Shown here: piece by piece, positions 3 through 42,282 of the stretch
Layout: each line of letters starts with the position of its first letter
How positions within the stretch are numbered: the first letter of the stretch is position 1
DNA from: Nocardioides sp.
Lineage (GTDB): Bacteria > Actinomycetota > Actinomycetes > Propionibacteriales > Nocardioidaceae
Length of the DNA: 64,000 bases
Assembly: GCA_017354415.1 (NCBI GenBank)
Contig: JAFMQY010000001.1
Location: 28 to 64,027 of the forward strand
Direction of reading: 5' to 3'
Program-made: the position numbers and the translations under genes
The notes under the pieces: generated by a model
Seen by the model: the letters and a program-made list of their open reading frames with translations, nothing else
Database searches by the model: none
What the model was told of the DNA's origin: nothing

Positions 3-2435
3 CTGGCCGCCGGCACCCTCGACGCGGCCCTGGCCGTCGCGCGCGCCGCGGTGCCTGAGGCGGCCGGTGCGCGGCTCGCCGTGATCGCGCTCGGCAAGTG
101 CGGTGGACACGAGCTCAACTACGTCTCCGACGTCGACGTCCTCTACGTCGTCGAGCCGGCGGATGGAGTCGACGAGGGGGACGCAGCCCGCGTGGCGACC
201 AGGCTCGCCTCGAACCTGATGCAGGTCTGTTCGGCCCACACGGCCGAGGGCACGCTCTGGCCGGTCGACGCCAACCTCCGGCCCGAGGGCAAGGCCGGTC
301 CGTTGGTCCGCACCCTGGCCAGTCACCGGGCGTACTACGAGCGCTGGGCGAAGACGTGGGAGTTCCAGGCTCTGCTCAAGGCGCGCCCGGTCGCCGGCGA
401 CCTCGAGCTCGGGCGCGCGTTCCTGGCCCTGGTCGAGCCGATGGTGTGGGAGGTGGCAGGGCGCGAGGGGTTCGTGGGCGACGTACAGGCGATGCGACGC
501 CGCGTGCTCGACACCATCCCTTCCCGGCACGCCGAGCGCCAGCTCAAGCTGGGGGCAGGTGGGCTCCGCGACGTCGAGTTCGCCGTCCAGCTGCTCCAGC
601 TGGTGCACGGCCGCTCGGACGAGCACCTGCGCGACCCCGGCACGCTGCACGCCCTCGACACCCTCACCGCCCGCGGATACGTCGGCCGCGAGGACGGCGA
701 GGCGCTGCACCGGGCTTACACGTTCCTGCGCCTTCTGGAGCACCGGATCCAGCTCCAGCACCTGCGCCGCACCCACGTCGTACCGTCCGACGACGCATCG
801 CTGCGGCGGCTCGGCCGGGCGATGGGGTTCACCAAGGAGCCGGCCGTGGCGCTCGAGGAGGCGTGGTCGCACCACCGGCTGGAGGTGCGCCGGCTCCACG
901 AGAAGTTCTTCTACCGGCCCTTGCTCGAGGCCGTCGCCCGGGTGCCGGCGGAAGGGTCGCGGCTGACGACCGAGGCCGCGGGCGCACGCCTTGCCGCGCT
1001 CGGCTTCGCCGACCCGAAGGCGGCGTTGCGGCACCTCGAGGCGCTGACCAGCGGGGTGACCCGGACCGCGGCGATCCAGCGGGCGCTGCTTCCGGCGATG
1101 CTCGAGTGGTTCGCAGACGCCCCGGACCCGGACGCCGGGTTGTTCGGCTTCCGGCGGATCAGCGAGAGCCTCGGGGCCACCCACTGGTACCTGCAGACAC
1201 TCCGCGACGAGGGCCAGGTGGCCGAGCGGCTGGCGCGGCTGCTCGCGACGTCGCGGTACGCCACGGACCTGCTCGAACGGGAGCCCGAAGGAGTGCGCAT
1301 GCTGGCTGGTGACCTCACGCCGCTGGGCAGCGGAACCTTGGTGGACCTGATGCGCGCGTCGGCCGAGCGGCAGGACGACCCGGCGGAGTCGGTGCGATCG
1401 ATCCGGGCGCTCCGTCGCCGGGAGCTGTTCCGGATCGCGGCCGGAGAGCTCTTCGGCGAGACGGACGTGGCGGACGTGGGAGCGGCCCTCTCGAGGGTGA
1501 CGGACGCGACCCTCGAGACCACCCTCGACGTGGCCGGCCGGTCGGTGCGGGCCGAGCGCGGGCTCGACACGGCACCGACCCGGATCGCGGTCGTCGCCAT
1601 GGGCCGGTACGGCGGGTTCGAGCTGTCCTACGGTAGCGACGCGGACGTGATGTTCGTCCACGACCCGGTGGCGGGCGCCGACGAGCACGAGGCCACGTCG
1701 TACGCCCACGCGGTGGCCAACGAGCTCCGGGCGCTGCTGCTCGCGCCGGCGAGCGACCCTCCGCTGGTGGTCGACGCCGACCTCCGTCCCGAGGGGAAGC
1801 AGGGCCCGCTGGCGCGCACGCTCGCGTCGTACGCCGCCTACTACGCCAAGTGGTCGAAGGTCTGGGAGGCCCAGGCCCTGCTCCGAGCCGATGCGGTGGT
1901 GGGTGACGAGCAGCTCCGGACCGGGTTCACCGCGCTGGTGGACCCTCTGCGCTACCCCGAGGGCGGGATCACCGAGGCCGACGTCCAGGAGATCCGGCGG
2001 ATCAAGGCGCGGGTCGACCAGGAGCGACTGCCGCGCGGCGCCGACCCTCACACGCACCTCAAGCTCGGCCGCGGCGGGCTCGCGGACATCGAGTGGACCG
2101 TCCAGCTCCTGCAGCTCCGGTACGCCGGACAGGTGCCGGAGCTCCGCAGCCCCCGCACCCTCAGCGCGCTCGACGCGGCCCGCGAGGCCGGACTCGTGGC
2201 GCCGGCGGACGCGGACGCGCTGGAACGCGCCTGGCGCACCGTGAGCCGGCTCCGCAACGCGATCACCCTGGTGACCGGGAAGAGCGGTGACCAGCTGCCG
2301 CGCGACGCGCGGGAACGCGCGGCGGTTGCCAGCATCCTCGACTACGGGCCCGGGCGGTCCGACGAGATGGTCAACGACTACCTCCGCACCACCCGCCGCG
2401 CACGGGCCGTGGTGGACCGGGTCTTCTGGGGGTGA
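3..2435 (+). CDS. glnE: Bifunctional glutamine synthetase adenylyltransferase/adenylyl-removing enzyme (5' end outside the window)
   Basis: Two nucleotidyltransferase domains (GKCGGHELNYVSDVD; GRYGGFELSYGSDAD; VDANLRPEGK/VDADLRPEGK; LKLGAGGLRDVEF/LKLGRGGLADIEW). The frame is open back to base 3. Confidence 0.96.
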   Translation: MAAGTLDAALAVARAAVPEAAGARLAVIALGKCGGHELNYVSDVDVLYVVEPADGVDEGDAARVATRLASNLMQVCSAHTAEGTLWPVDANLRPEGKAGPLVRTLASHRAYYERWAKTWEFQALLKARPVAGDLELGRAFLALVEPMVWEVAGREGFVGDVQAMRRRVLDTIPSRHAERQLKLGAGGLRDVEFAVQLLQLVHGRSDEHLRDPGTLHALDTLTARGYVGREDGEALHRAYTFLRLLEHRIQLQHLRRTHVVPSDDASLRRLGRAMGFTKEPAVALEEAWSHHRLEVRRLHEKFFYRPLLEAVARVPAEGSRLTTEAAGARLAALGFADPKAALRHLEALTSGVTRTAAIQRALLPAMLEWFADAPDPDAGLFGFRRISESLGATHWYLQTLRDEGQVAERLARLLATSRYATDLLEREPEGVRMLAGDLTPLGSGTLVDLMRASAERQDDPAESVRSIRALRRRELFRIAAGELFGETDVADVGAALSRVTDATLETTLDVAGRSVRAERGLDTAPTRIAVVAMGRYGGFELSYGSDADVMFVHDPVAGADEHEATSYAHAVANELRALLLAPASDPPLVVDADLRPEGKQGPLARTLASYAAYYAKWSKVWEAQALLRADAVVGDEQLRTGFTALVDPLRYPEGGITEADVQEIRRIKARVDQERLPRGADPHTHLKLGRGGLADIEWTVQLLQLRYAGQVPELRSPRTLSALDAAREAGLVAPADADALERAWRTVSRLRNAITLVTGKSGDQLPRDARERAAVASILDYGPGRSDEMVNDYLRTTRRARAVVDRVFWG

Positions 2436-2479
2436 CGATTACCTCGCCGCCACCGGACCTTTCGCCGCTGAGCTGGTGT

Positions 2480-2532
2480 GGCGATGAGGGAGCCACCGCT
2501 TGAGGGGACAGAACGGTGGCTCCCTCACCGCC
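2480..2532. terminator. GC-rich stem-loop downstream of glnE (terminator or REP-like)
   Basis: TGAGGGAGCCACCG (2485-2498) pairs perfectly with CGGTGGCTCCCTCA (2514-2527), extended by GGCG/CGCC. Confidence 0.6.
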
Positions 2533-2651
2533 GGGTGCCCGCGCGGCCCGGGAGCGGTGAGAGATCCACGGTTCGGTAGGAGGGAACGGTGGCTGGCTCA
2601 CCGACACGTGTCCCCGGCGGGCTGTCACCGGTGGTGGACATACTCGGGCCC

Positions 2652-3431
2652 ATGACCTCCACCGCAGACCGAGCCACGCAGCTGCTGGCGATGCACACCG
2701 ACCCGACCCTGCTCACCCTGGTGAATGTCTGGGACGCCGCGAGCGCGCGGGTCGTCGCCCAGTCCGAGGGCACGCGCGCGATCGCCACCGCGAGCCATGC
2801 GATCGCGGCGATGTACGGGTACGACGACGGTGAGCAGATCCCGCGCGACCTGATGCTCGAGGCGGTCGGCCGCGTCGTCGACGCTGTCGACCTGCCGGTG
2901 ACCGCCGACCTGGAGGCCGGGTACGGCGACGCCGCCGAGACGGTCCGCCGCGCGATCGGGCTCGGCGTCGTCGGCTGCAACATCGAGGACCAGCTCAAGC
3001 CGGTCGGCGAAGCAGCCGCCGTCGTCGAGTCGGTGATGCTGGCTGCGACCGACGAGGGAGTGCCCGACTTCGTGCTCAACGCCCGCACCGACGCGTTCCT
3101 GCTGGCCGCCGACCGAGACCCGCACGCCGTACTCGCGGACGCGATCGAGCGGGGCACGGCGTTCCTCGACGCCGGCGCGCCGGTGGTCTTCGTGCCCGGC
3201 CGGCTGGGCGAGGAGCAGGTGGTGGCGTTGGTCGAGGCGTTCGGGCAGCAGCGGCTCACCATGCTGCCGGCGCCCGGGTCCCCCTCACTGACGAGGCTGG
3301 AGGAGCTCGGCGTCGCTCGGTGCAGCTTCGGGCCGTTCCCGCAGCGGTGGGCCCTGACGGCCCTGCAGCAGATGGTCGAGGGCGTGGCACGCGGAGAGGG
3401 CATCCCCGAAGGCACTCGGATGCTCACCTGA
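2652..3431 (+). CDS. Isocitrate lyase/PEP mutase family protein
   Basis: NVWDAASAR, TASHAIA, PVTADLEAGYG, GCNIEDQ, FVLNARTD motifs. Start placed at ATG 2652. Confidence 0.88.
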   Translation: MTSTADRATQLLAMHTDPTLLTLVNVWDAASARVVAQSEGTRAIATASHAIAAMYGYDDGEQIPRDLMLEAVGRVVDAVDLPVTADLEAGYGDAAETVRRAIGLGVVGCNIEDQLKPVGEAAAVVESVMLAATDEGVPDFVLNARTDAFLLAADRDPHAVLADAIERGTAFLDAGAPVVFVPGRLGEEQVVALVEAFGQQRLTMLPAPGSPSLTRLEELGVARCSFGPFPQRWALTALQQMVEGVARGEGIPEGTRMLT

Positions 3432-3483
3432 CCGCGGCGAAACCCTCTTGGCCCGCCGGGCCGACCACTGGTTGGCTGGTGCC

Positions 3484-4578
3484 GTGGACGACGAGCTGAT
3501 GACCCGACTCCGCGCCGCCGCCGAGGCCTGCGACACCACGGTCTTCTGGCACGCGCGCCGTACGCCGGCCCAGGTTCTGCGAGCAGTGGCCGACGCCGCC
3601 GAGGAGCTCGAGCTCGACGAGTGGGACGTGTACGCCGAGCGTGGCCCGGTCGCCCAGGTCGAGAAAGAGGTCGCCGAGCTGCTGGGCAAGCCGGCCGCGG
3701 CGTTCTTCCCGAGCGGAATCATGGCTCAGCAAGCCGCCCTCCGGGTCTGGTGCGACCGCACCGGGTCCCGGCGGGTCGCGATCCCCGACCTCTCCCACCT
3801 GCTCAAGCACGAGGACGACGGGCCACGACGTGTGCACGGGTTCGAGTTCGAGTACCTCACGACGGGCCGGGTCACGGCGACCGCCGACGACATGCGCAGC
3901 CTGTCCCCGGGCCTGGGCGCTGCGCTGATCGAGCTCCCGCTGCGCGACGCCGGCTGCCTGCTGCCGTCCTGGGACGACCTGACCGCTCTCTCGGAGGCCG
4001 CCCGCGAGCTCGGCTGTCCCTTGCACGCCGACGGTGCCCGCATCTGGGAGTCGCAGGCGTTCTACGACAAGCCGCTGTCCGAGATCGCGGCCCTCGTCGA
4101 CACCATCTACGTGTCGTTCTACAAAGGCCTCGAGGCGCTGGCCGGCGCAGCCCTGGCCGGGCCCGAGGACGTCGTCGACGAGGCGCGGCGGTGGCGCAAG
4201 CGGATGGGCGGCACCTTGTTCCACCTCACGCCGTACGCCGTCTCGGCCCTGGCCGGGCTGCGCGACCGGCTGCCGCGGATGGGCGAGTACGCCGCGTGGG
4301 CGCGGAAGCTGGCCGCCGAGCTGTCGACCGCCGGTCTTCGGGTGACTCCGGATCCCCCGCACACGAACACCTTCCTGGTCTACGCCGAGGGTGACCCGGA
4401 CGCGATCACCGAGCGGGTGATCGGCTTCATGGAGCGGGAGAAGATCCAGCCCTGTGGTGGCTGGTGGGAGGCGCCGGTACCGGGCGTGGCGATGTCGGAG
4501 GTCGCGGTCCACGACGCGGCCCTGGAGCACGACCCCGCCCAGGTGGCGGGCTGGATCACCGAGGTCGCCGGCGTCTGA
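3484..4578 (+). CDS. Low-specificity threonine aldolase / beta-eliminating lyase family (PLP)
   Basis: AAFFPSGIMAQQ, LHADGARIW, YVSFYKGL (PLP lysine). Start uncertain (GTG 3484 or ATG 3499). Confidence 0.85.
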   Translation: MDDELMTRLRAAAEACDTTVFWHARRTPAQVLRAVADAAEELELDEWDVYAERGPVAQVEKEVAELLGKPAAAFFPSGIMAQQAALRVWCDRTGSRRVAIPDLSHLLKHEDDGPRRVHGFEFEYLTTGRVTATADDMRSLSPGLGAALIELPLRDAGCLLPSWDDLTALSEAARELGCPLHADGARIWESQAFYDKPLSEIAALVDTIYVSFYKGLEALAGAALAGPEDVVDEARRWRKRMGGTLFHLTPYAVSALAGLRDRLPRMGEYAAWARKLAAELSTAGLRVTPDPPHTNTFLVYAEGDPDAITERVIGFMEREKIQPCGGWWEAPVPGVAMSEVAVHDAALEHDPAQVAGWITEVAGV

Positions 4579-32334: not shown

Positions 32335-33261
32335 TCACGACACGAACGGCACGACCGCGACGGTCAGGAACAGCAGCGTCAGGTACAGGTTGGACAGGTG
32401 GAAAAGGCGCAAGGGCCGAAGTGTTGCGAGCTCGTCGGACGTCGACGCCCGGCGCAACAGCTGCCAGGACTCGCTCACGAGCACCGCACCGAGGACGAGC
32501 GCGACGCCCGGGTAGAGGACTCCGGTGCCAGCTACCGGCCACAGGAGCAGTGACGTCAGGAGCGTGACGATCGAGTATCCGAGGATCTGGCGGGCAACCG
32601 TACGGGTCGGTGCGACCGAGGGGAGCATGGGCACACCCGCGCTTGCGTAGTCCTCCCGGTAGCGGATCGCCAAGGCCCAGAAATGAGGGGGCGTCCAGAA
32701 GAAGACGACGAGGAAGAGCACGAACGGCGCCCACCCCAGGCTGCCGCGTACGGCGGTCCACCCGATGAGCGCGGGGAAGCATCCTGCGACACCGCCCCAG
32801 ACGATGTTCTGTGCGGTTCGCGGCTTGAGCAGGACCGTGTAGCCGACCACGTAGAACGCGTTGGCTGCCAGCGCCAGCGCCGCGGAGAGCCAGTTGACGA
32901 GGAGGCCGAGGACGAGGGTCGAGACGACCGCGAGCATCAGGCCGAAGACGAGCGCGTCGCGTCGGGATACCTGGTCGCGGGCCAGTGGACGTCTGCGTGT
33001 CCGGCGCATGCGAGCATCGATGTCGGCATCGACGACGCAGTTGAGCGCATTCGCACTGCCCGCCGACAGGCTGCCGCCGACCAGCGTGGCGACCACGAGT
33101 CCGAGCGGCGGTACGCCGTCTTGCGCCAGGAACATCACCGGCAGTGTCGTCAGCAGCAGCAGCTCGATGATGCGGGGCTTCATCAGGGCGACGTACGCCG
33201 CGACGAGTCCCCGCATGCTCACGACGCGCACGCCACCCTCGATCTTCAGCTCCGCTGTCAT
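32335..33261 (-). CDS. ctaB: Heme O synthase (protoheme IX farnesyltransferase)
   Basis: LMKPRII, DADIDARMRRTRRRP, FFWTPPHFWAL, DYASAGVPMLP. Confidence 0.95.
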   Translation of the reverse strand: MTAELKIEGGVRVVSMRGLVAAYVALMKPRIIELLLLTTLPVMFLAQDGVPPLGLVVATLVGGSLSAGSANALNCVVDADIDARMRRTRRRPLARDQVSRRDALVFGLMLAVVSTLVLGLLVNWLSAALALAANAFYVVGYTVLLKPRTAQNIVWGGVAGCFPALIGWTAVRGSLGWAPFVLFLVVFFWTPPHFWALAIRYREDYASAGVPMLPSVAPTRTVARQILGYSIVTLLTSLLLWPVAGTGVLYPGVALVLGAVLVSESWQLLRRASTSDELATLRPLRLFHLSNLYLTLLFLTVAVVPFVS

Positions 33262-33800
33262 GACGCCGCCTTCCTGAGAGCCTGGTGCAACATGTCGGGG
33301 CTCAGTGGCCCCACGACGCGAGCCACCACGATGCCGTCGGCGGTCACGATCAGCGCGCTGGGAATGCCGTTCTGCGGGAGCATCCGAAGCCCGCCGAGCA
33401 GGCGTCCGTCAGGGTCGTGGAGGCTCGGGTAGGTGACGCCGTGATCGTCGGCGAAGGCGAGGGCACGGCTGGCGCTGTCTCGCTCATCGATCCCGAGCAC
33501 CCGGACCCCCTGTCGGGCGGCCCGGGCGAGGAGAGGAAGCTCCTGACGGCACGGGTAGCACCAGGACGCCCAGACGTCGACGACGAGCGGCGACCCCGCG
33601 GCGTAGGACGACGCGGTCAAGCTCCGGCCCGACAGTGTGGTGCCCGCCAGTGCGGGCAGCCTGACACGGTCGCGGGGGGAGAAGACCGTGAGCCCCACCG
33701 TCGAGCCCGAGTGGCTCTGCCGACCAGCGCTCGAGCTGCACGAGGGTGCGAGGACGGCCAGGAGCCCCAGCATGAGGAGCACGGCAAGCGGCCTGATCAC
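33258..33800 (-). CDS. TlpA/ResA-like thiol-disulfide oxidoreductase, probable lipoprotein
   Basis: DVWASWCYPCRQELP. Signal peptide with Cys (LAPSC). Start GTG 33800 overlaps the SCO stop. Confidence 0.88.
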   Translation of the reverse strand: MIRPLAVLLMLGLLAVLAPSCSSSAGRQSHSGSTVGLTVFSPRDRVRLPALAGTTLSGRSLTASSYAAGSPLVVDVWASWCYPCRQELPLLARAARQGVRVLGIDERDSASRALAFADDHGVTYPSLHDPDGRLLGGLRMLPQNGIPSALIVTADGIVVARVVGPLSPDMLHQALRKAAS

Positions 33801-34549
33801 TGCGAACCGCCCCCCAGCATCCAGTCGAGCGCCTTGGTCACCTGGGCCGGCGTCCAGGCCCCGGAGTCCGGGGCCTGCGCGTTGCGGTGCCCGAGCCCGT
33901 CCATGAAGTGGAAGATGCGCTGGGGGATCCGCTGGGGCTTGACGCTCCCCGGACCCTCCATCTCGTACCGGTAATGCTGTGCGCCGTTGATGAAGACGAG
34001 CTCGTCGGTGTGCGCGATGTCCGTGGTCAGCGGACGGCCGGTCAGCCAGTCGGTCGGGTACGGCGGGTGCAGCCGGATCTGGTGACGCCAGACGCCCAGC
34101 CGCGACCACAGGCTGTTGACGACGGTGGGAGACCCGCGCAGCGCGGTCCAGTTGGCGAGCGCCCCGAACTGGTGTCGATAGGCACGCAGGTGGCGCAGGT
34201 CATCGCGTTGCGGGTCGATCGTCAGACTCACGAACTCCACGTCCTTGCCCACGCGCGTGCGGTCGACCTGCCGGGCTGCGGCCAGCATGCTCGCGGTCAC
34301 CAGGGGGCAGGTCTCCTGGCACAGGGTCATCACATCCGACAGGACGATGATCTTGCCGCGCCACTGGCCCAGCGTGACGTGATGACCGTTCTGGTCGACC
34401 AGGGGCGCGTCGAGGATCGTCTGCGGAACGGGCGCGTCGAGAACCGTGCCGAAGCCTGGCGCAGCCGGCGTGGCGGCCGCGTCCTCGTGGCCGGACGCTG
34501 CGCCGCATCCGGCCGTCGCAGCGGCCACTGCGGTGAGAAGCAGAGCCAA
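33797..34549 (-). CDS. SCO1/SenC family copper chaperone, lipoprotein
   Basis: TLCQETCPL (CxxxC), LTIDPQRD, DIAHTD His, lipobox TAGC. Start approximate. Confidence 0.88.
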   Translation of the reverse strand: MALLLTAVAAATAGCGAASGHEDAAATPAAPGFGTVLDAPVPQTILDAPLVDQNGHHVTLGQWRGKIIVLSDVMTLCQETCPLVTASMLAAARQVDRTRVGKDVEFVSLTIDPQRDDLRHLRAYRHQFGALANWTALRGSPTVVNSLWSRLGVWRHQIRLHPPYPTDWLTGRPLTTDIAHTDELVFINGAQHYRYEMEGPGSVKPQRIPQRIFHFMDGLGHRNAQAPDSGAWTPAQVTKALDWMLGGGSQ

Positions 34550-34591
34550 GACGATTCCGCGCAGTCGGCCAACGCTGTACGGTGATCCACC

Positions 34592-35452
34592 GTGCAGGAG
34601 GTCGGGTCGCTGCTGAGCGCGTGGGAACCCGCCCCGCTTCCGTGGCTCGGATGTCTCGTCTTCGCCCTGGTGTACGTCGCGGCCGCGCGCAGTGTGACCG
34701 CTCGGACGCCGACCCAGCCGTGGCCGGCGTCCCAGACCGTGTGCTGGCTGGCCGGGACGTTCATCGTGTGGGTCTCCCTGGTGGGTCCGCCCGGCGCCTG
34801 GGACGATGTCTACTTCTACGCGCACATGACCCAGCACATCCTGCTGACCAGTCTCGCCGCGCCGCTCCTGGTGCTCGGGGATCCGATCCTCCTGCTGGCG
34901 AGGTTCGGCAGACCCGACTGGCGTCGCCGTCGTCTGGTGCCGGTGCTGCGCAGTGACACCCTCCGGTTCCTGACCCACCCGGTGACGGGGTGGGTGGTGT
35001 TCGTCGGGGTGATGGGCCTGAGCCACATCCCGGCCGTGTACGACTTCGCCCTCGACCACCCGGCGGTGCACGACTACGTCGAGCACCCCCTCTACCTGGC
35101 GGCGGGGATGCTGTACTTCTACCCGCTGCTGGTGGCGACAGCGGGCCGGCAGGTGCGGCACTGGGTGCGCATCGTGTCGCTGTTCACCTCGATGGTGTTC
35201 ATGGCCTTCCTCGGGTTCTTCATCTTCGCCCTGCCGAGCGTCGCCTACCCGTTCTACGCCCACACCGACCGTCCGTTCTCACCCGGGCCGCTGGCCGACC
35301 AGCATGCGGCCGGCATCCTGATGTGGTCGGGGTCGATGGTCGTCAGTGTGGTGTGGCTGGTGGTGGCCGGCCACAACTGGCTGATGGCCGAGGAGCGGCG
35401 TACTGCGCGGGAAGCCGTGCGTGCGGCTGCCGGAACGGAGCCTGCCGTATGA
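34592..35452 (+). CDS. Cytochrome c oxidase assembly protein, CtaG (Caa3_CtaG) type
   Basis: FYAHMTQHILL...APLLVLG, HDYVEH, DQHAAGILMW. Confidence 0.88.
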   Translation: MQEVGSLLSAWEPAPLPWLGCLVFALVYVAAARSVTARTPTQPWPASQTVCWLAGTFIVWVSLVGPPGAWDDVYFYAHMTQHILLTSLAAPLLVLGDPILLLARFGRPDWRRRRLVPVLRSDTLRFLTHPVTGWVVFVGVMGLSHIPAVYDFALDHPAVHDYVEHPLYLAAGMLYFYPLLVATAGRQVRHWVRIVSLFTSMVFMAFLGFFIFALPSVAYPFYAHTDRPFSPGPLADQHAAGILMWSGSMVVSVVWLVVAGHNWLMAEERRTAREAVRAAAGTEPAV

Positions 35453-35793
35453 GCAGCTCGTCGCCCGGACCCACGTGGCGCTATCACGTCTTCTTCTCGT
35501 GCGCCGTCATCGTGTGCCTGGCGGCCGGCTGGTTCGAGCTGGGCCGCGCTCGAAGCGGTCGTGAGATCGCGTGGGTGTACACCTTCGAATGGCCGGCGTT
35601 CGCCGCGGTGTTCGTGTTCATGTGGTGGCGTGTGGTCGCGGACCGACCGACCCGCCGACCGGCGCCGCCGGGTGGCGGCACCGGCCGCGACGTGATCCCC
35701 GACGACGACCCGGGGCTGCGGGCCTGGCGGAACTACCTCGCAGAGCTGGAGCATGACGACGACGGCACAGACCGCGCACCGGGATCCGGCTGA
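35449..35793 (+). CDS. Conserved small membrane protein of unknown function
   Basis: GWFELGRARSG...WVYTFEWPAFA. ATGA coupling with ctaG. 3' end overlaps the coxC-like gene by 61 bp. Confidence 0.6.
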   Translation: MSSSSPGPTWRYHVFFSCAVIVCLAAGWFELGRARSGREIAWVYTFEWPAFAAVFVFMWWRVVADRPTRRPAPPGGGTGRDVIPDDDPGLRAWRNYLAELEHDDDGTDRAPGSG

Positions 35794-36404
35794 TCCTTGG
35801 CCAACGGGCAGCCGACCGTGCCGTTGGCGACCGAGATCGTCAGCGTGCCCACGAACGCCGCCACGCACACCCACGTGTACCAGATCCCCACGATCCGGAC
35901 GTGCCAGTCACGTGCGCCCCGATTGGCCCCGCGCTGCCGCCGGATCGCGATCCCGAGTCCCAGGAAGACTGTCAGGGCGAGGTGGAAGACATTGGCTGCT
36001 GTGATGATCCAGACCGCAGCGGAGTAGGCGTTGTCGCTGACCGTGAACGGGAACTGGTACATCTGGACGATGGTCAGCACCAGTGCCACGGCCATCCCCG
36101 CCACCGACACCGCCACGCCGTTTGCGAAGCTGCCGCGCAGCTGCGTCCAGTAGGCCAGCGCCGACAGCACCATCACCGCCGAGACGGTCCAGGGCCACCA
36201 GAGGGTGGCGACGCCGGTACCGCCGGGGTGGAACGAACCCTGGGTGTCGAGCGCACGCAGGTACAGGAAGCTGAACGAGAGCGCCGCGACGAACGCCGCA
36301 TCGGCCAGGATCAGCAGCAGTGCCCCGACCCGCCATCTCTCACCGAAGTCGTGAGGCTCCTCGGGTGCGAAGGCTTCCTTGTTGACCAGCGACTCGGTGC
36401 TCAT
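35733..36404 (-). CDS. Heme-copper oxidase subunit III-like (short, divergent)
   Basis: About 5 TM, YSAAVW...NVFHLAL...G, C-terminal WYTWV. ATGA coupling to subunit I. Confidence 0.75.
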   Translation of the reverse strand: MSTESLVNKEAFAPEEPHDFGERWRVGALLLILADAAFVAALSFSFLYLRALDTQGSFHPGGTGVATLWWPWTVSAVMVLSALAYWTQLRGSFANGVAVSVAGMAVALVLTIVQMYQFPFTVSDNAYSAAVWIITAANVFHLALTVFLGLGIAIRRQRGANRGARDWHVRIVGIWYTWVCVAAFVGTLTISVANGTVGCPLAKDQPDPGARSVPSSSCSSSAR

Positions 36405-38329
36405 GCCGGGGCTCCTGGAACGTCGGCTTCAGCCCCGGCCGACGCCGGCACTGGTTCGGGCTCTGACTCGGGGACCGGTTCCTCGCCGTACCCGTAGGCG
36501 TCCTCCGTGACAACCGGCAGGACTGCGAAGTTCTCCAGCGGGATCGGGTTCGGAACGGTCCACTCGAGCGTCTTGGCACCCCACGGGTTCATCGGCGCCA
36601 GGTCTCCGTGGCGCCAGGAGCTGATCACGTCGTACAGCAGGACCAGCATGCCGATGCCGATGCAGTAGGCGCCCAGCGTGGAGATCGTGTTGCCCGTGTG
36701 GAAGCTGGCGTCGTAGTGCACGACTCGGCGGGGCTGTCCTTGGAGGCCGACCATGAACATCCCGAGGAAGGTCACGTTGAAACCGATCTGCACGAGCCAG
36801 AAGGAGACGAACGCCGGAGTGTTGCCGAGCATCCGTCCTGTCATCTTGGGGAACCAGTAGCCCAGTGCCCCCATCGCTCCGGTCAGACCGGCTCCCATCA
36901 GGGTGTAGTGGAAGTGGGCGGTCACGAACATCGACCCGTGGAGCTGGTAGTCCAGCGGCACGTCCGACAGGTAGATGCCGGTGATGCCACCGATGATGAA
37001 GTTCCACAGCATGGCGTAGGTGCACATCATCGGGAAGGCGGTCCAGATGCGACCACGCCAGATCGTGCCCAGGATGACGAGGAACAGGCCGCCTGTGGGG
37101 ATGGAGATCATCTCCGTGGTGAGCATGAAGGGACCGTTCAGGTCCGGGGCCCAGCCGGAGGCGAACATGTGGTGGGCCCACACCGTCGCGCTGAGTCCGA
37201 CGATCGCGATGATCGAGAGCACGGCGATCCGGAAGCTGAACAGCGGCTTGCGCGCGAACACCGCTGTCAGCTCCATCAATGCGGTGACCGCGGGGATCAG
37301 GATGACGTAGACCTCCGGGTGGCCCATCAGCCAGAAGAGGTTCTGGTACAGCCAGGGCTGGCCACCTCGGTTGGGCACGTAGAAGCCGCCGCCCATGACC
37401 CGGTCGACGAAGAGCAGGAGCTCTGCGGCCATGAAGAACGGGAAGGCCGGCAGCGCGAGCACCACGCTGGCGAGCACGCCGTACACGAAGATGGGCGTGC
37501 GGGTCCACGTCATGCCGCGGGCTCGCATGGTCACGATCGTGGTCGTGATGTTCATGCCGGCCACGGCAGTGGAGACCGCGAACACCAGGATCGCCATCAT
37601 GTAGGCGTCGACTCCGGGAGGGCCCTGGTCGGCGATCGGTGTGTACCCGACCCAGCCCATCGGGATGCCGCCCAGGAAGGCCGCCGAGTACAGGATCGGG
37701 AGCATGGCCACGAGGAGCCAGAAGCTGAGTGCGTTGAGCCGCGGGAACGCCATGTCCCGGGCACCGATCATCAGCGGCACCACGAAGTTCCCGAACGGGC
37801 CGGTGACCATGATGATCGTCGCCAGGATCATGGTCAGGCCGTGCAGGCCGACCAGAGAGTTGTAGGTCTGGGGGCCCAGGAAGCCGCTGTTCGGCGAGAT
37901 GAGGTCCGTCCGGATCAGCATGGCCATGGATCCACCGGCTCCGAGCATCACCATCACCAACACGAGGTACTGGATGCCGACGACCTTGTGGTCGGTGGTG
38001 AAGCGGAAGTACCGACCGACTCCCTGGTCCTTGCCGGCGAGGAAGAGCTCGTCGGCGTGCGTGAGATCGCGTCCGACCAGCCACCGAAACGGGCCCGTGA
38101 AGGCACCCATGCCGAGCAGGAAGCCGACCGCCCAGCCGAACATGGTGAACACGGCACGCACGTCGGGCTCGTGGGTGTGTCCGTCCGCGAGCTTCTTCGC
38201 GAGGACGTTGGCGACGACCGCGAGGACGATGCCGGCGATGATTCCGGTGCCCACGTTGAGGCGCCGCATGATCCCGCCGTGCGGTGCGACCGGCGAGGGA
38301 TCGGTCTTGTAGATGTCCGCGGTTGTCAC
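36401..38329 (-). CDS. Heme-copper oxidase subunit I, A-type with atypical K-channel
   Basis: TTDHKVVG, LHG, DMAFPRLN, GHPEVY, WAHHMF, AHFHY, PRR. AGGAGA RBS before GTG 38329. Confidence 0.95.
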   Translation of the reverse strand: MTTADIYKTDPSPVAPHGGIMRRLNVGTGIIAGIVLAVVANVLAKKLADGHTHEPDVRAVFTMFGWAVGFLLGMGAFTGPFRWLVGRDLTHADELFLAGKDQGVGRYFRFTTDHKVVGIQYLVLVMVMLGAGGSMAMLIRTDLISPNSGFLGPQTYNSLVGLHGLTMILATIIMVTGPFGNFVVPLMIGARDMAFPRLNALSFWLLVAMLPILYSAAFLGGIPMGWVGYTPIADQGPPGVDAYMMAILVFAVSTAVAGMNITTTIVTMRARGMTWTRTPIFVYGVLASVVLALPAFPFFMAAELLLFVDRVMGGGFYVPNRGGQPWLYQNLFWLMGHPEVYVILIPAVTALMELTAVFARKPLFSFRIAVLSIIAIVGLSATVWAHHMFASGWAPDLNGPFMLTTEMISIPTGGLFLVILGTIWRGRIWTAFPMMCTYAMLWNFIIGGITGIYLSDVPLDYQLHGSMFVTAHFHYTLMGAGLTGAMGALGYWFPKMTGRMLGNTPAFVSFWLVQIGFNVTFLGMFMVGLQGQPRRVVHYDASFHTGNTISTLGAYCIGIGMLVLLYDVISSWRHGDLAPMNPWGAKTLEWTVPNPIPLENFAVLPVVTEDAYGYGEEPVPESEPEPVPASAGAEADVPGAPA

Positions 38330-38351
38330 GGCCTTGTCTCCTGTCGCTCGC

Positions 38352-39125
38352 TCATGCGTGACCTCCCTGCCCCGCGATCCATGTGTCGAAGTCGTCGGAT
38401 GTGACGACCCTCGCGTTGGTCTCCATGTCGGCATGGAGAAGCCCGCACAGCTCGGCGCACCGGACGTGGTACAGGCCGAGCCGGTCCGGGACGGTCGACG
38501 TCGAGGTGGTCACGCCGGGGTTGGCGTCGACCTTGATTCCCATCTCCGGCAGCCAGAACGAGTGGATGACGTCGTCACTGGTCACCTTGAAGACGACCGG
38601 CCGGTTGACCGGCAGGACCAGCTGGTCGGACTCGACTCCCTGCGAGGGGTAGCTGAACGTCCACACCCACTGCTGCCCGGTGACATCGATCTCGAGGGGG
38701 GTCGCCCCCGAGGCCGCGGCCGAGTCCACCTTGCTCAGAGCGGCGAGTCCCCAGATGAGAAGGAACAAGCAGAGCGCGGACGACAGGAAGATCCAGATGC
38801 CCGAGGTCATGCCGTGACCTCGCAGAGGGGGCCCGTCCGGGTCGCCCTCCTTCCAGGCGCCTCTCCGTCGCCAACGCATGAGGCTGTAGACAGCCAGCGC
38901 CCAGACGACCGCGGCAACGGGCGCCGACGCCACGGAGAACATGGTGAACGTGCGCTCGACCTCGGTCATCGTGTTGCTCGCCGAAGGTCCCATCAGGTGA
39001 TGCGGAACGATCAACGCGAAGATCACCCCGAGAACCGTGAAGATCGCCCACAGGATTGTGAGTGTCTTCAGCTCCTCGCTGCGTGACCGGCCTTGGCGAT
39101 CCGCCGGTGTCGTTTCGACCGACAC
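38352..39125 (-). CDS. Heme-copper oxidase subunit II with CuA site
   Basis: GQQWVWTFSY, DVIHSFW, CAELCGLLHADM. Three N-terminal hydrophobic segments. Confidence 0.93.
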   Translation of the reverse strand: MSVETTPADRQGRSRSEELKTLTILWAIFTVLGVIFALIVPHHLMGPSASNTMTEVERTFTMFSVASAPVAAVVWALAVYSLMRWRRRGAWKEGDPDGPPLRGHGMTSGIWIFLSSALCLFLLIWGLAALSKVDSAAASGATPLEIDVTGQQWVWTFSYPSQGVESDQLVLPVNRPVVFKVTSDDVIHSFWLPEMGIKVDANPGVTTSTSTVPDRLGLYHVRCAELCGLLHADMETNARVVTSDDFDTWIAGQGGHA

Positions 39126-39147: not shown

Positions 39148-39828
39148 TCAGGAGACGGTGAAGGTGCCCGACATGTAGCCGCGGGTCGACATGGGTCCGC
39201 CGAACTTGGCGTAGTAGCCGTCGCCGCACGGGAACTCGCAGTTCCAGATGTACTTGCCCGGGCCCTTGGTGTGGAACGAGAACGTGACCTCGATCGGCTT
39301 CGGGTAGTCGCTACCAGCAGCGATCGGCGCGTCGTCCGGTACGGCGGGCAGCGGCGCGCTCACGAACAGCGGATCCTGCGCGGTCGGTGCCGCGTGCAGC
39401 GTCCAGGTGTGTCCGACCGCCTCCGGGTCGATCTGCGTGACCGGCTTGCCGTCCACGGTCTCGGTGCCACCGACGGTGCCGTGCACCTTCGCGAACCACG
39501 GGTTCGTGATCGCCTCGCCGCCGTCGTACTGGCTGATCGTGATGGTCACCAGTGAATGCGCCGGCACGTTGATGTTGGTGCCCGGCCCGTAGCTGACCCA
39601 GTCCGGTTCAGCACCGCCGTCTTTGCCGTGCTCTCCGGCCATGCTGTCCGGGTACGTATCCAGATGGACGTAGACGTGGTGCTGCTCCGTGGCCGACGGC
39701 GGTGTCGCCGCCGTGACACGTGCCGCCACTGCTGGACTCAAGCTTTGATGCAACAGCAGGCCCAAGACCGTGACGAATGCCCCCCCAAGCAAGACAGTCA
39801 CGATCGGGCCGATGAGCTTCTTACCCAT
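39148..39828 (-). CDS. Membrane-anchored cupredoxin-fold protein, first gene of the oxidase operon
   Basis: N-terminal TM, VPAHSLVTITI beta strand, GHTW, and GKYIWNCEFPCG...GGPMSTRGYMSGTFTV cupredoxin-like C-terminal loop. Confidence 0.75.
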   Translation of the reverse strand: MGKKLIGPIVTVLLGGAFVTVLGLLLHQSLSPAVAARVTAATPPSATEQHHVYVHLDTYPDSMAGEHGKDGGAEPDWVSYGPGTNINVPAHSLVTITISQYDGGEAITNPWFAKVHGTVGGTETVDGKPVTQIDPEAVGHTWTLHAAPTAQDPLFVSAPLPAVPDDAPIAAGSDYPKPIEVTFSFHTKGPGKYIWNCEFPCGDGYYAKFGGPMSTRGYMSGTFTVS

Positions 39829-40484: not shown

Positions 40485-40583
40485 CGCGGCCGATCTCGAA
40501 TCGATCCGCCACTTGACCGGTCCCACCCCAAGGGTGGTTACACTGACGCGACTTTTGTGTCACGGGGGAAGTTTGGGGTGGCC

Positions 40584-41243
40584 ATGTCCCGCGATCGCGT
40601 CCTGGTGATCGACGACGAGCCTCGCGTCCTCCACTTCGTCTCGCGGGCGCTCCGTGCTGAGGGCGTTGACGTCGACAGCGCGGAGGGCGGTGAGGAGGGC
40701 TGTCGGCTGGCGCTCTCGCAGCCGTATCGACTGGTCATCCTCGATCTCGTCATGCCGGGGGTCGACGGGATGACCGTGCTGAAGCGGCTGCTGCACCACA
40801 AGCCGGATCAGGCCGTGCTGATCCTCTCGTGTCTGAGCGACACCAGCACCAAGGTGCGAGCGCTCGATCTGGGCGCGGCCGACTACCTGGGCAAGCCGTT
40901 CGCGCTCAACGAGCTGATGGCCCGGGTCCGCGTGAGGATGCGGGTACGCCACGACGGCTTCGTCCTGAGCGCCCATGACTTCGTCCTGGATCCCGTCCGC
41001 CACGAGGTCAAGACGCCCACCAAGACCGTGCTGCTGACCCGGACCGAGTCGGCTCTGCTGGGAGAGCTGATCCAGCACGCGGGCGAGAGCGTCTCGAAGG
41101 AGCGGCTCCTCTCGGAGGTGTGGGGCTACCAGTTCGACCCCGAGACCAACGTCGTGGACGTCTACGTCCGGCGGATTCGCAAGAAGCTCGGTGCGACAGC
41201 GATCTCAACGGTGCGAGGAGTTGGCTATGGCGTCGATCTCTGA
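40584..41243 (+). CDS. OmpR/PhoB family response regulator
   Basis: VIDDE, ILDLVMP, GAADYLGKPF, VWG...TNVVDVYVRRIRKKL, TVRGVGY. Confidence 0.94.
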   Translation: MSRDRVLVIDDEPRVLHFVSRALRAEGVDVDSAEGGEEGCRLALSQPYRLVILDLVMPGVDGMTVLKRLLHHKPDQAVLILSCLSDTSTKVRALDLGAADYLGKPFALNELMARVRVRMRVRHDGFVLSAHDFVLDPVRHEVKTPTKTVLLTRTESALLGELIQHAGESVSKERLLSEVWGYQFDPETNVVDVYVRRIRKKLGATAISTVRGVGYGVDL

Positions 41244-42282
41244 GGTGTCCATCAGCGCCCCGCGACGTACCGCTCTCGTCTGGCACCAGTACCGGGTCGA
41301 CATCCTGTGGTGGTGCTTCGTCGCGATCAACGCCTGGGCAATGCTCGTGCTCAGCGTGTGGGCCACGGTGCCGTTCCACTTCATCTGGATCGGTGTCTCG
41401 CTGATGTACGGCTGGCGCGTGTGGACCATGAGGGTCACCTTCGTCTCGCTGTCCGTGATCGTCGTGGTCACGGGGGCGATGCTGCTGGACGACGTCTTCC
41501 GGGGTACCCAGGCGCCCGACGAGCTCACGGAGATCCCGCTGATGGCGGCGGTCTTCCTCGTGATGGTGCACTACGTGCGGCGCAGCGCCGCCGCGCAGCA
41601 GGAGACCGCGCGGGTTGCGGCGCACAACCTCGCCCTGGTCGAGCAGAGCCGGACCCTTGTACAGAACGCCTCCCACGTGCTCCGCACGCCGCTCACCATC
41701 GCGCTGGGTCATGCCGAGCTCTTGGAGCGCACCGCCACCGGTCCCGAGACGGTCGATGACGCCCGCGTCGTCGTCGACGAGCTGAACCGGCTCACGAAGG
41801 TCACCGACCGTTTCCTGGGACTGGCCAAGAGCGAACAGCCCGACTTCCTCTCCCCGGTCGAGACTGCGGTCGGAGACCTGGTGATGCGTACGGCCACTCG
41901 ATGGATGGCCACGCATCCGCCCGTCAGCCTCGGTGTCGTGGTGAACGAGGTCATGTCGGTCGATCCCGACCGCCTGGCCGAGGCCATCGACGAGATGATC
42001 GGGAACGCCGTCGTCCACTGCCCTCCAGGCACGCCGGTCGAGGTCTCCGCAGGCCGGCGCGCCGGCCGGTATGTGATCTCGGTGGCGGACCGCGGCGCGG
42101 GGATCCCGGCCTCGATGACGGCGTCCGTCTTCGAGCGTTTCAGCCACGGGACCGGCACCAGCCGTCGCGGAGCTGGCCTGGGGCTCGCCATCGTCAAGGC
42201 GATCACCGAGGGGCACGGTGGCACGGTCAGGGTCCGCAGTCGTGAAGGGGGAGGCACGGTCCTGGAGATGGCGCTGCCCTGA
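41227..42282 (+). CDS. Membrane sensor histidine kinase (HisKA-HATPase)
   Basis: About 5 TM, H-box SHVLRTP, N-box GNAV, DRGAGI, GAGLGL. Confidence 0.92.
   Translation: MASISEVSISAPRRTALVWHQYRVDILWWCFVAINAWAMLVLSVWATVPFHFIWIGVSLMYGWRVWTMRVTFVSLSVIVVVTGAMLLDDVFRGTQAPDELTEIPLMAAVFLVMVHYVRRSAAAQQETARVAAHNLALVEQSRTLVQNASHVLRTPLTIALGHAELLERTATGPETVDDARVVVDELNRLTKVTDRFLGLAKSEQPDFLSPVETAVGDLVMRTATRWMATHPPVSLGVVVNEVMSVDPDRLAEAIDEMIGNAVVHCPPGTPVEVSAGRRAGRYVISVADRGAGIPASMTASVFERFSHGTGTSRRGAGLGLAIVKAITEGHGGTVRVRSREGGGTVLEMALP

Follow-up and report, generated by a model that had tools for sequence, protein, structure and literature searches.

A conserved, membrane-anchored cupredoxin-fold protein with a putative variant CuA-type copper site, encoded next to a second, K-channel-less oxidase of Actinomycetota

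By their ligands, the copper sites used in biological electron transfer form very few classes, namely type 1 and CuA. Type-1 sites use an H...C-xn-H-xn-M arrangement, while CuA sites use H...CxxxCxxxHxxM. In AcoP, the ligands are the standard His-Cys-His-Met set, and the site is mononuclear and green. The protein is a trans-membrane-anchored cupredoxin that binds its oxidase tightly, and its gene is part of the oxidase gene cluster (PMC4059628). In the rus operon, the cup gene, which codes for AcoP, is located just before that of COX2, and the COX1 of this operon is also without a K channel (bioRxiv 10.1101/2020.03.01.968255). A clade of K-channel-less COX has been described for iron oxidisers and environmental Actinobacteria (bioRxiv 10.1101/2020.03.01.968255). 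Another unusual cupredoxin is PmoD, in which a CuA-type centre is formed by an unexpected set of Cys, Met and His ligands (PMC6189053). Here we analyse a protein (the target) encoded in a 64,000-nucleotide stretch of Nocardioides sp. DNA (the window); our literature searches found no description of its family.

The features of the target gene and of the oxidase genes compared with it are collected in Table 1. A GAGG sequence is located 5 nt 5' of the ATG. A sequence-only reading of the window had pointed out an N-terminal trans-membrane anchor, a GHTW motif and a C-x3-C-x11-M-x5-M loop. All three are present: residues 3-26 form one predicted helix preceded by KK, GHTW corresponds to residues 139-142, and residues 195-221 read WNCEFPCGDGYYAKFGGPMSTRGYMSG, giving C197-x3-C201-x11-M213-x5-M219. 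The KK and the helix predict an N-in orientation, which would place the domain outside the cytoplasm. Distant relatives contain lipoprotein boxes (LAAC, ASAC, AAGC) instead of the trans-membrane helix, also an extracytoplasmic tether. Haem binding was discarded given the lack of a CxxCH motif, and iron-sulphur binding given the presence of two Cys only.

Table 1. Position of the target gene, its candidate ligand residues, neighbouring genes in the window and comparable genes of three sister operons (numbered within their own loci).
Feature	Position	Strand	Remarks
Target gene	39148..39828	-	226-aa ORF, ATG start; predicted membrane-anchored cupredoxin-fold protein, unnamed family
N-terminal trans-membrane anchor, residues 3-26	39751..39822	-	Single helix in first AF2 model, KK before helix
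Cupredoxin domain (predicted), residues 46-226	39151..39693	-	Large insertions; AF2 and Foldseek
H140 codon (GHTW)	39409..39411	-	Counterpart of the first ligand His in CuA and type-1 sites; strand 138-146
Putative metal loop C197-E-F-P-C201-G-x10-M213-x5-M219-x-G221	39166..39240	-	Between the final two strands
C197 codon	39238-39240	-	Codon checked on sequence
C201 codon	39226-39228	-	Codon checked on sequence
M213 codon	39190-39192	-	Codon checked on sequence
M219 codon	39172-39174	-	Codon checked on sequence
ctaC, subunit II	38352..39125	-	PF00116 E 2e-20, TIGR02866 162.6 bits; 22 nt downstream of target
ctaD, subunit I, second divergent A-type oxidase	36401..38434	-	PF00115 E 1e-118
Subunit-III-like membrane protein (ctaE position)	35733..36404	-	No Pfam match; closes four-gene operon; after ctaD in 73/80 loci
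caa3-type CtaG (CuB insertion factor)	34592..35452	+	PF09678 E 2e-54; dedicated assembly set
SCO1/SenC, TlpA-like thioredoxin, haem O synthase (CtaB)	32335..34600	-	PF02630, PF00578, PF01040; the 34600 boundary is an estimate
Listed 488-aa SCO1/SenC ORF	33797-35263	-	Over-extended; overlaps ctaG on the opposite strand
OmpR-type response regulator and histidine kinase	40557-42282	+	Divergent, upstream of the operon
L091, canonical type-1 lipoprotein cupredoxin, sulfocyanin/plastocyanin type	3390-3896	+	Ends 4 nt before ctaC
L092, CtaC with Met/Asp/Gly-rich C-terminal tail	3271-4566	+	K-channel-less oxidase
L093, CtaC with C-terminal canonical Cupredoxin_1 domain	1943-3289	-	37.2 bits

A first AF2 model, calculated from 32 close sequences, has a pLDDT of 72; its top Foldseek matches are all cupredoxins nonetheless. 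The second model, of residues 46-226 and calculated from 119 diverse sequences, has a pLDDT of 95.4 and a pTM of 0.90, and its best ~40 Foldseek matches in the PDB are all cupredoxin domains. Auracyanin B is matched with an E-value of 4.1e-6 (TMt 0.54), auracyanin A with a TMt of 0.59, AcoP with 0.51 and the Bacillus anthracis Cupredoxin_1 protein 4hcf with 0.64; further matches are the Nitrosopumilus purple cupredoxin, CuA domains of NosZ and domains of laccases and nitrite reductases. A search of the PDB sequences with the target as single sequence gave no relevant match. The family profile does match the auracyanin B sequence (E 1.2e-4); in this alignment, C197 coincides with the ligand Cys of the CTFPGH motif. 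The sequence-only reading, which had called the protein a cupredoxin and had let its proposal stand or fall with this, is borne out by the predicted fold, a Greek-key beta-sandwich of the cupredoxin type. In the model, H140 is part of strand 138-146, strand 191-196 leads into C197, and M219 is located just before strand 220-225. The three residues are thereby modelled at the classical cupredoxin ligand positions, i.e. where strand 4 ends and in the loop that joins the final two strands. By homology, H140, C197, C201, M213 and M219 should be close together in space.

Of known domains, the CuA domain of oxidase subunit II is closest to the target in profile comparisons. Alignment of the target family with the family of the adjacent CtaC by hhalign (probability 69%, E 4.6e-5) pairs H140 with the first His of CuA; C197 and C201 fall on its two Cys, G202 on the Gly after them and M219 on the Met. 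It also superimposes HTFTIPxLGxNVP of the target onto HSFWxxxMGIKVD of CtaC. An eight-column insertion in the target family contains M213, and the column of the second CuA His is occupied by R216, a position that is variable across the family and almost never His. The earlier suggestion of a retained CuA-like Cys pair, a longer loop and a lost second His is thus in agreement with the alignment. That this His had been replaced by Met does not hold as a positional substitution: M213 is a new residue, provided by the insertion.

The CuA domain of COX2 (PF00116) resembles the target in being an extracytoplasmic, membrane-anchored cupredoxin domain, and the two share H-[ST]-F-x-[IL]-P-x-[LM]-G-[IV]-x-V and C-x3-C-G. 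In contrast to COX2, the target has one trans-membrane helix rather than a two-helix hairpin, misses the second His (H-x2-M), and contains an inserted loop of 4-20 residues with a new invariant Met as well as large extra insertions. The target was not assigned to the COX2/CuA group, as it does not contain H...C-x3-C-x3-H-x2-M, does not match PF00116 and has a single trans-membrane helix. Of 68 deep members of its family, 16 match PF13473 weakly and 7 match PF00116 weakly, below the cut-off.

The target matches no Pfam or NCBIfam family at E<=1. A word-indexed protein search found at least 842 homologues, nearly all of them 'hypothetical protein' or nameless, in metagenome-assembled genomes and a few isolates of Actinomycetota. 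An exhaustive profile search at E<=1e-3 led to 527 representative clusters (50% identity clusters). We take the family to be real and conserved; it is unnamed. In 32 close relatives, the many invariant residues include H67, H140, H145, C197, E198, C201, D203, M213 and M219; in a deep alignment of sequences 29-54% identical to the target, the invariant set shrinks to H140, C197, P200, C201, M213, M219 and G221. As the invariance of H67 and H145 is limited to the close clade and does not extend to the deep family, both were discarded as core ligands.

The members of this deep alignment had been picked with a motif filter. Conservation was recounted with the filter dropped, aligning all retrieved sequences to the family HMM and keeping those in which the region is covered. 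In 88 cluster representatives (50% identity), H140, C197 and C201 are each present in 87, and M213, M219 and G221 in all 88. The second branch, which takes in Chloroflexota, Dormibacterota and one Thermoplasmatota archaeon, contains the His in 116 of its 117 sequences and both Cys and both Met in all 117. The full five-residue set is retained in 203 of the 205 family members, some only ~30% identical to the target, so the pattern of one His, two Cys and two Met is conserved far beyond chance. The loop between C201 and M213 varies from 4 to ~20 residues across the family, while the M-x5-M spacing is constant.

Such a degree of conservation bears on the possibility that the target is a non-redox structural or stabilising subunit, i.e. 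a degenerate paralogue of subunit II, its Cys pair forming a disulphide, that shields or positions the CuA domain. The canonical second His is lost, and two Cys could pair as a disulphide outside the cell; in crystals of PmoD, its invariant Cys pair is a disulphide (PMC6189053). A protective role was the first to be reported for AcoP, which maintains oxidase activity (PMC4059628). The target is as conserved as a core subunit, and its surface loops that are invariant in the close clade look like interfaces. Nevertheless, a structural role leaves unexplained why two Met and one His are kept at ligand positions in stand-alone relatives of ~30% identity from other phyla, and a disulphide between residues i and i+4 would not require Met and His. 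We consider a structural role improbable.

Three long loops of the target, residues 59-82, 100-113 and 203-212 (YPDSMAGEHG..PDWVSYGP, QYDGGE.ITNP and GDGYYAKFGG), are invariant in the oxidase-linked clade only, alongside H67, H145 and several Asp and Glu residues. These loops may constitute an interface with CtaC or CtaD, or a second metal site.

The distant members represented by L088, L089 and L090 (~35% identity, often lipoproteins) keep the full five-residue signature. They are stand-alone genes without an oxidase nearby and are found in other Actinomycetota, Chloroflexota, Dormibacterota and the archaeon. Most distant members are on short contigs; on long contigs they are lone genes beside unrelated neighbours. 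One of them is located downstream of an NrfD-like gene, but a connection with Alternative Complex III was dropped, as the ORF in between contains no haem motif and the family gene is preceded by a gap of 267 nt.

In the window, the target gene heads an operon with ctaC, ctaD and the gene in the ctaE position. When one genome per GTDB species was scanned, at least 435 loci were seen to encode relatives, with carriers in Nocardioidaceae, Frankiales, Pseudonocardiales, Streptosporangiales, Dermatophilaceae and Nanopelagicales (acI), and including the isolate Intrasporangium chromatireducens Q5-1. Synteny was counted for 80 of these loci. The order target, ctaC, ctaD on one strand is observed in 78 of the 80, with ctaE next in 73, and in the remaining two the contig ends at the target gene. 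Measured from the target stop codon, the earliest potential start of ctaC is at a median distance of 14 nt. Of 300 genomes sampled evenly across the phylum, only five contain the family; all five have the same gene order, although their CtaD sequences are only 41-45% identical to that of the window. The link to the adjacent oxidase drawn in the sequence-only reading, which had proposed a neighbourhood analysis, is thus upheld, the synteny being obligate. CtaG is present in 73 of the 80 loci, where its gene is often the immediate upstream neighbour of the target gene, in divergent orientation; SCO1/SenC, the TlpA-like protein and CtaB are present in 39, 38 and 32, respectively. The start of the window's SCO gene is probably near 34600.

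The two-component genes upstream of the operon were not considered part of the unit, being present in 11 of the 80 loci only; in the closest relatives, they take the place of CtaG as upstream neighbour.

Mean identities to the window proteins in 73 complete operons are 64.5% for the target, 56.5% for CtaC, 71.9% for CtaD, 44.2% for CtaE, 46.4% for CtaG and 44.3% for SCO; in 70 of the 73, the conservation of the target exceeds that of CtaC. Because its identity is above that of CtaC, CtaE, CtaG and SCO, the target appears constrained like a core component and not like an assembly factor.

This is of importance for a second alternative, in which the target is a dedicated copper chaperone, a cupredoxin-fold carrier of Cu(I) and functional analogue of PCuAC or Sco, loading CuA (or CuB) on the outer face of the membrane. 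Sets of Cys, Met and His have an affinity for Cu(I), and Sco has CxxxC plus His as its ligand motif. The Cys2-His-Met2 set of the target would be typical of Cu(I) trafficking sites too. The fold of PCuAC is cupredoxin-like, and PCuAC (PF04314) is absent from six of nine carrier genomes (G000 and G002-G006), two complete chromosomes included. The target gene is located between ctaG and ctaC in most loci, and the window cluster also contains SCO and TlpA genes. PCuAC and Sco resemble the target in having extracytoplasmic Cu(I)-type ligands (Met and His, or CxxxC plus His) and in being encoded near oxidase genes. Sco, however, has a thioredoxin fold, and a separate SCO gene is already part of the cluster. 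Membership of either family was rejected: neither PF04314 nor PF02630 matches the target, and the PCuAC motif H(M)x10Mx21HxM is absent from it. The putative ligands are exactly at the positions of cupredoxin redox sites, and the target gene is predicted to be co-transcribed with structural genes and evolves more slowly than those of CtaC, CtaE, CtaG and SCO. Furthermore, the same genomes mature the CuA of a canonical aa3 oxidase without a linked target. A chaperone function is therefore unlikely in our judgement.

The window's CtaC contains an intact canonical CuA site (H...CAELCGLLHADM), the residues of which are invariant or nearly so in 19 orthologues. In CtaD, the COX1 domain starts at residue 152, preceded by an N-terminal extension of ~145 residues, which includes two hydrophobic segments. 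The Lys of the K channel is replaced, the sequence at this position being PTGGLF, and by sequence the protein fits the described K-channel-less COX clade. Two COX1 genes are present in the window genome: the canonical one scores 547 bits, that of the operon 399 bits. Eight further carriers, among them a 1.3-Mb acI genome and two complete chromosomes, all proved to contain the same pair, and all nine carrier genomes also encode a canonical CuA-containing aa3 oxidase. As the canonical aa3 oxidase is present in every genome checked, the K-channel-less oxidase of the window is a second, accessory one. Streamlined freshwater acI/Nanopelagicales, as represented by locus L072 of a 1.3-Mb acI single-cell genome (G002), keep both oxidases and the target gene.

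K-channel-less oxidases are otherwise known from iron oxidisers (bioRxiv 10.1101/2020.03.01.968255), and the purple cupredoxin of Nitrosopumilus is among the fold matches. Both observations fit a catalytic or substrate-facing copper protein, which would pass electrons from an external substrate (e.g. Fe(II), NO or a small reductant) directly to the oxidase. However, no gene for Cyc2, rusticyanin or another substrate-oxidising protein is conserved near the target gene in the 80 loci, the hosts are neutrophilic actinobacteria of soil and freshwater, and the sequence gives no sign of a substrate pocket. We regard such a function as very improbable.

Sister operons provide the strongest argument for a function as electron donor. 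In ten related ctaC-ctaD clusters of the phylum sample, hmmsearch at E<=10 found no member of the target family. Three of the ten (L091, L092 and L093) are K-channel-less like the window oxidase, the Lys of CtaD also being missing (PTGLVF, PTGVIF). In L091, the position of the target gene is occupied by a type-1 lipoprotein cupredoxin, LICNVSGHYAAGM, matched by PF06525 with 27.5 bits and by PF00127 with 25.6 bits. In L093, a Cupredoxin_1 domain (FFRCDVHPIPAM; FFRCDVHPIPAMSGTFIVK) is fused to CtaC, which by analogy makes it a 'cupredoxin-aa3' counterpart of caa3 oxidases. Five relatives that do contain the K-channel Lys have CtaC-cytochrome c fusions with CxxCH motifs. The tail of the L092 CtaC, GGPMDGMDMGGDGGMDMGGDG, is reminiscent of Cu(I)-binding Met motifs. 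Orthology of the target with the type-1 domains of L091 and L093 was rejected, with hhalign probabilities of 3% and 1%; judged from these profiles, the cupredoxins are analogous replacements of the target, not orthologues. Since recognised electron carriers, not chaperones, fill the position of the target in sister operons, an electron-donor role is favoured. The sequence-only reading had left open whether the protein donates electrons to the adjacent oxidase or supplies copper to it; these operons favour the former.

The best explanation, to which we give about even credence, is that the target is an electron-entry partner like AcoP or sulfocyanin, with a variant CuA-type copper site. Tethered extracytoplasmically by its single N-terminal helix, the protein would bind copper, as suggested by the homology of the ligand positions and their invariance, most likely via H140, C197, C201 and M219, which take the positions of the first His, the two Cys and the Met of CuA, with M213, on the inserted loop, as a further ligand instead of the lost second His. 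The resulting site would be derived from CuA, be rich in thiolates and contain one or two copper ions. CtaC keeps its full CuA site and the Trp of QWVW and thus still needs a donor; in the oxidase cluster of the window, no cytochrome c gene was found. The target probably serves the accessory K-channel-less aa3-type oxidase (ctaC-ctaD-ctaE) as its dedicated partner for electron entry, and electrons would pass from the target to the canonical CuA of CtaC, as they do elsewhere from AcoP, sulfocyanin or a fused cytochrome c. The target itself may receive them from the bcc complex. The stand-alone distant members without an oxidase nearby count against the target being an electron-entry partner.

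AcoP, the cytochrome c oxidase partner cupredoxin of Acidithiobacillus ferrooxidans (PDB entries 7z3b and 7z3f), is one of the known systems close to the target. Like the target, it has a single N-terminal trans-membrane anchor and a cupredoxin domain with non-standard regions, its gene is located directly upstream of coxB, the CoxA encoded with it lacks the K channel, and its structure is among the top fold matches. The target corresponds to AcoP in being a trans-membrane-anchored cupredoxin encoded directly upstream of coxB/ctaC, but lacks sequence homology to it as well as the His-Cys-His-Met set; the likeness is at fold level only (10-14% identity), the putative set of the target being Cys2-His-Met2.

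The auracyanins are the best fold and sequence matches of the target and, like members of its family, are tethered by a trans-membrane helix or a lipid, while a gene of the sulfocyanin/plastocyanin type takes its operon position in L091. Auracyanins and sulfocyanin differ from the target in their canonical C-x4-H-x4-M loop. Assignment of the target to the type-1 blue copper proteins (PF00127, PF06525) was rejected, as the segment from C197 to M219 lacks a His and neither HMM matches. PmoD/AmoD resembles the target in having an unusual CuA-like ligand set, putative in the target, beside a copper membrane enzyme. The PmoD site, however, is located between two monomers, involves an N-terminal Cx7MxH and belongs to a protein with a C-terminal anchor, while the candidate ligands of the target come from one chain, in the classical C-terminal loop.

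A more specific proposal, which we make tentatively and hold to be possible but doubtful, is that of a variant purple CuA centre, Cu2(S-Cys)2, in which H140 would be the terminal His, M213 of the inserted loop the terminal Met and M219 the axial Met. As this centre would reside on a second subunit-II-like subunit, two thiolate-bridged copper centres would be arranged in series at the point of electron entry in this clade of aa3 oxidases. If true, this would be a previously unseen class of copper site, new in its spectroscopic and redox properties, and its carriers would include abundant actinobacteria of soil and of freshwater (acI). With a natural Cys2-His-Met2 site in the classical position of cupredoxins, the few known ligand classes would gain one more.

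Actinobacteria are not known to have a soluble cytochrome c; the target is the obvious candidate for the missing electron-input link of the second oxidase. It gives several hundred clusters, now almost all labelled 'hypothetical protein', a name, and it marks a second, K-channel-less aa3-type oxidase that at least 435 species keep beside their canonical bcc-aa3 system.
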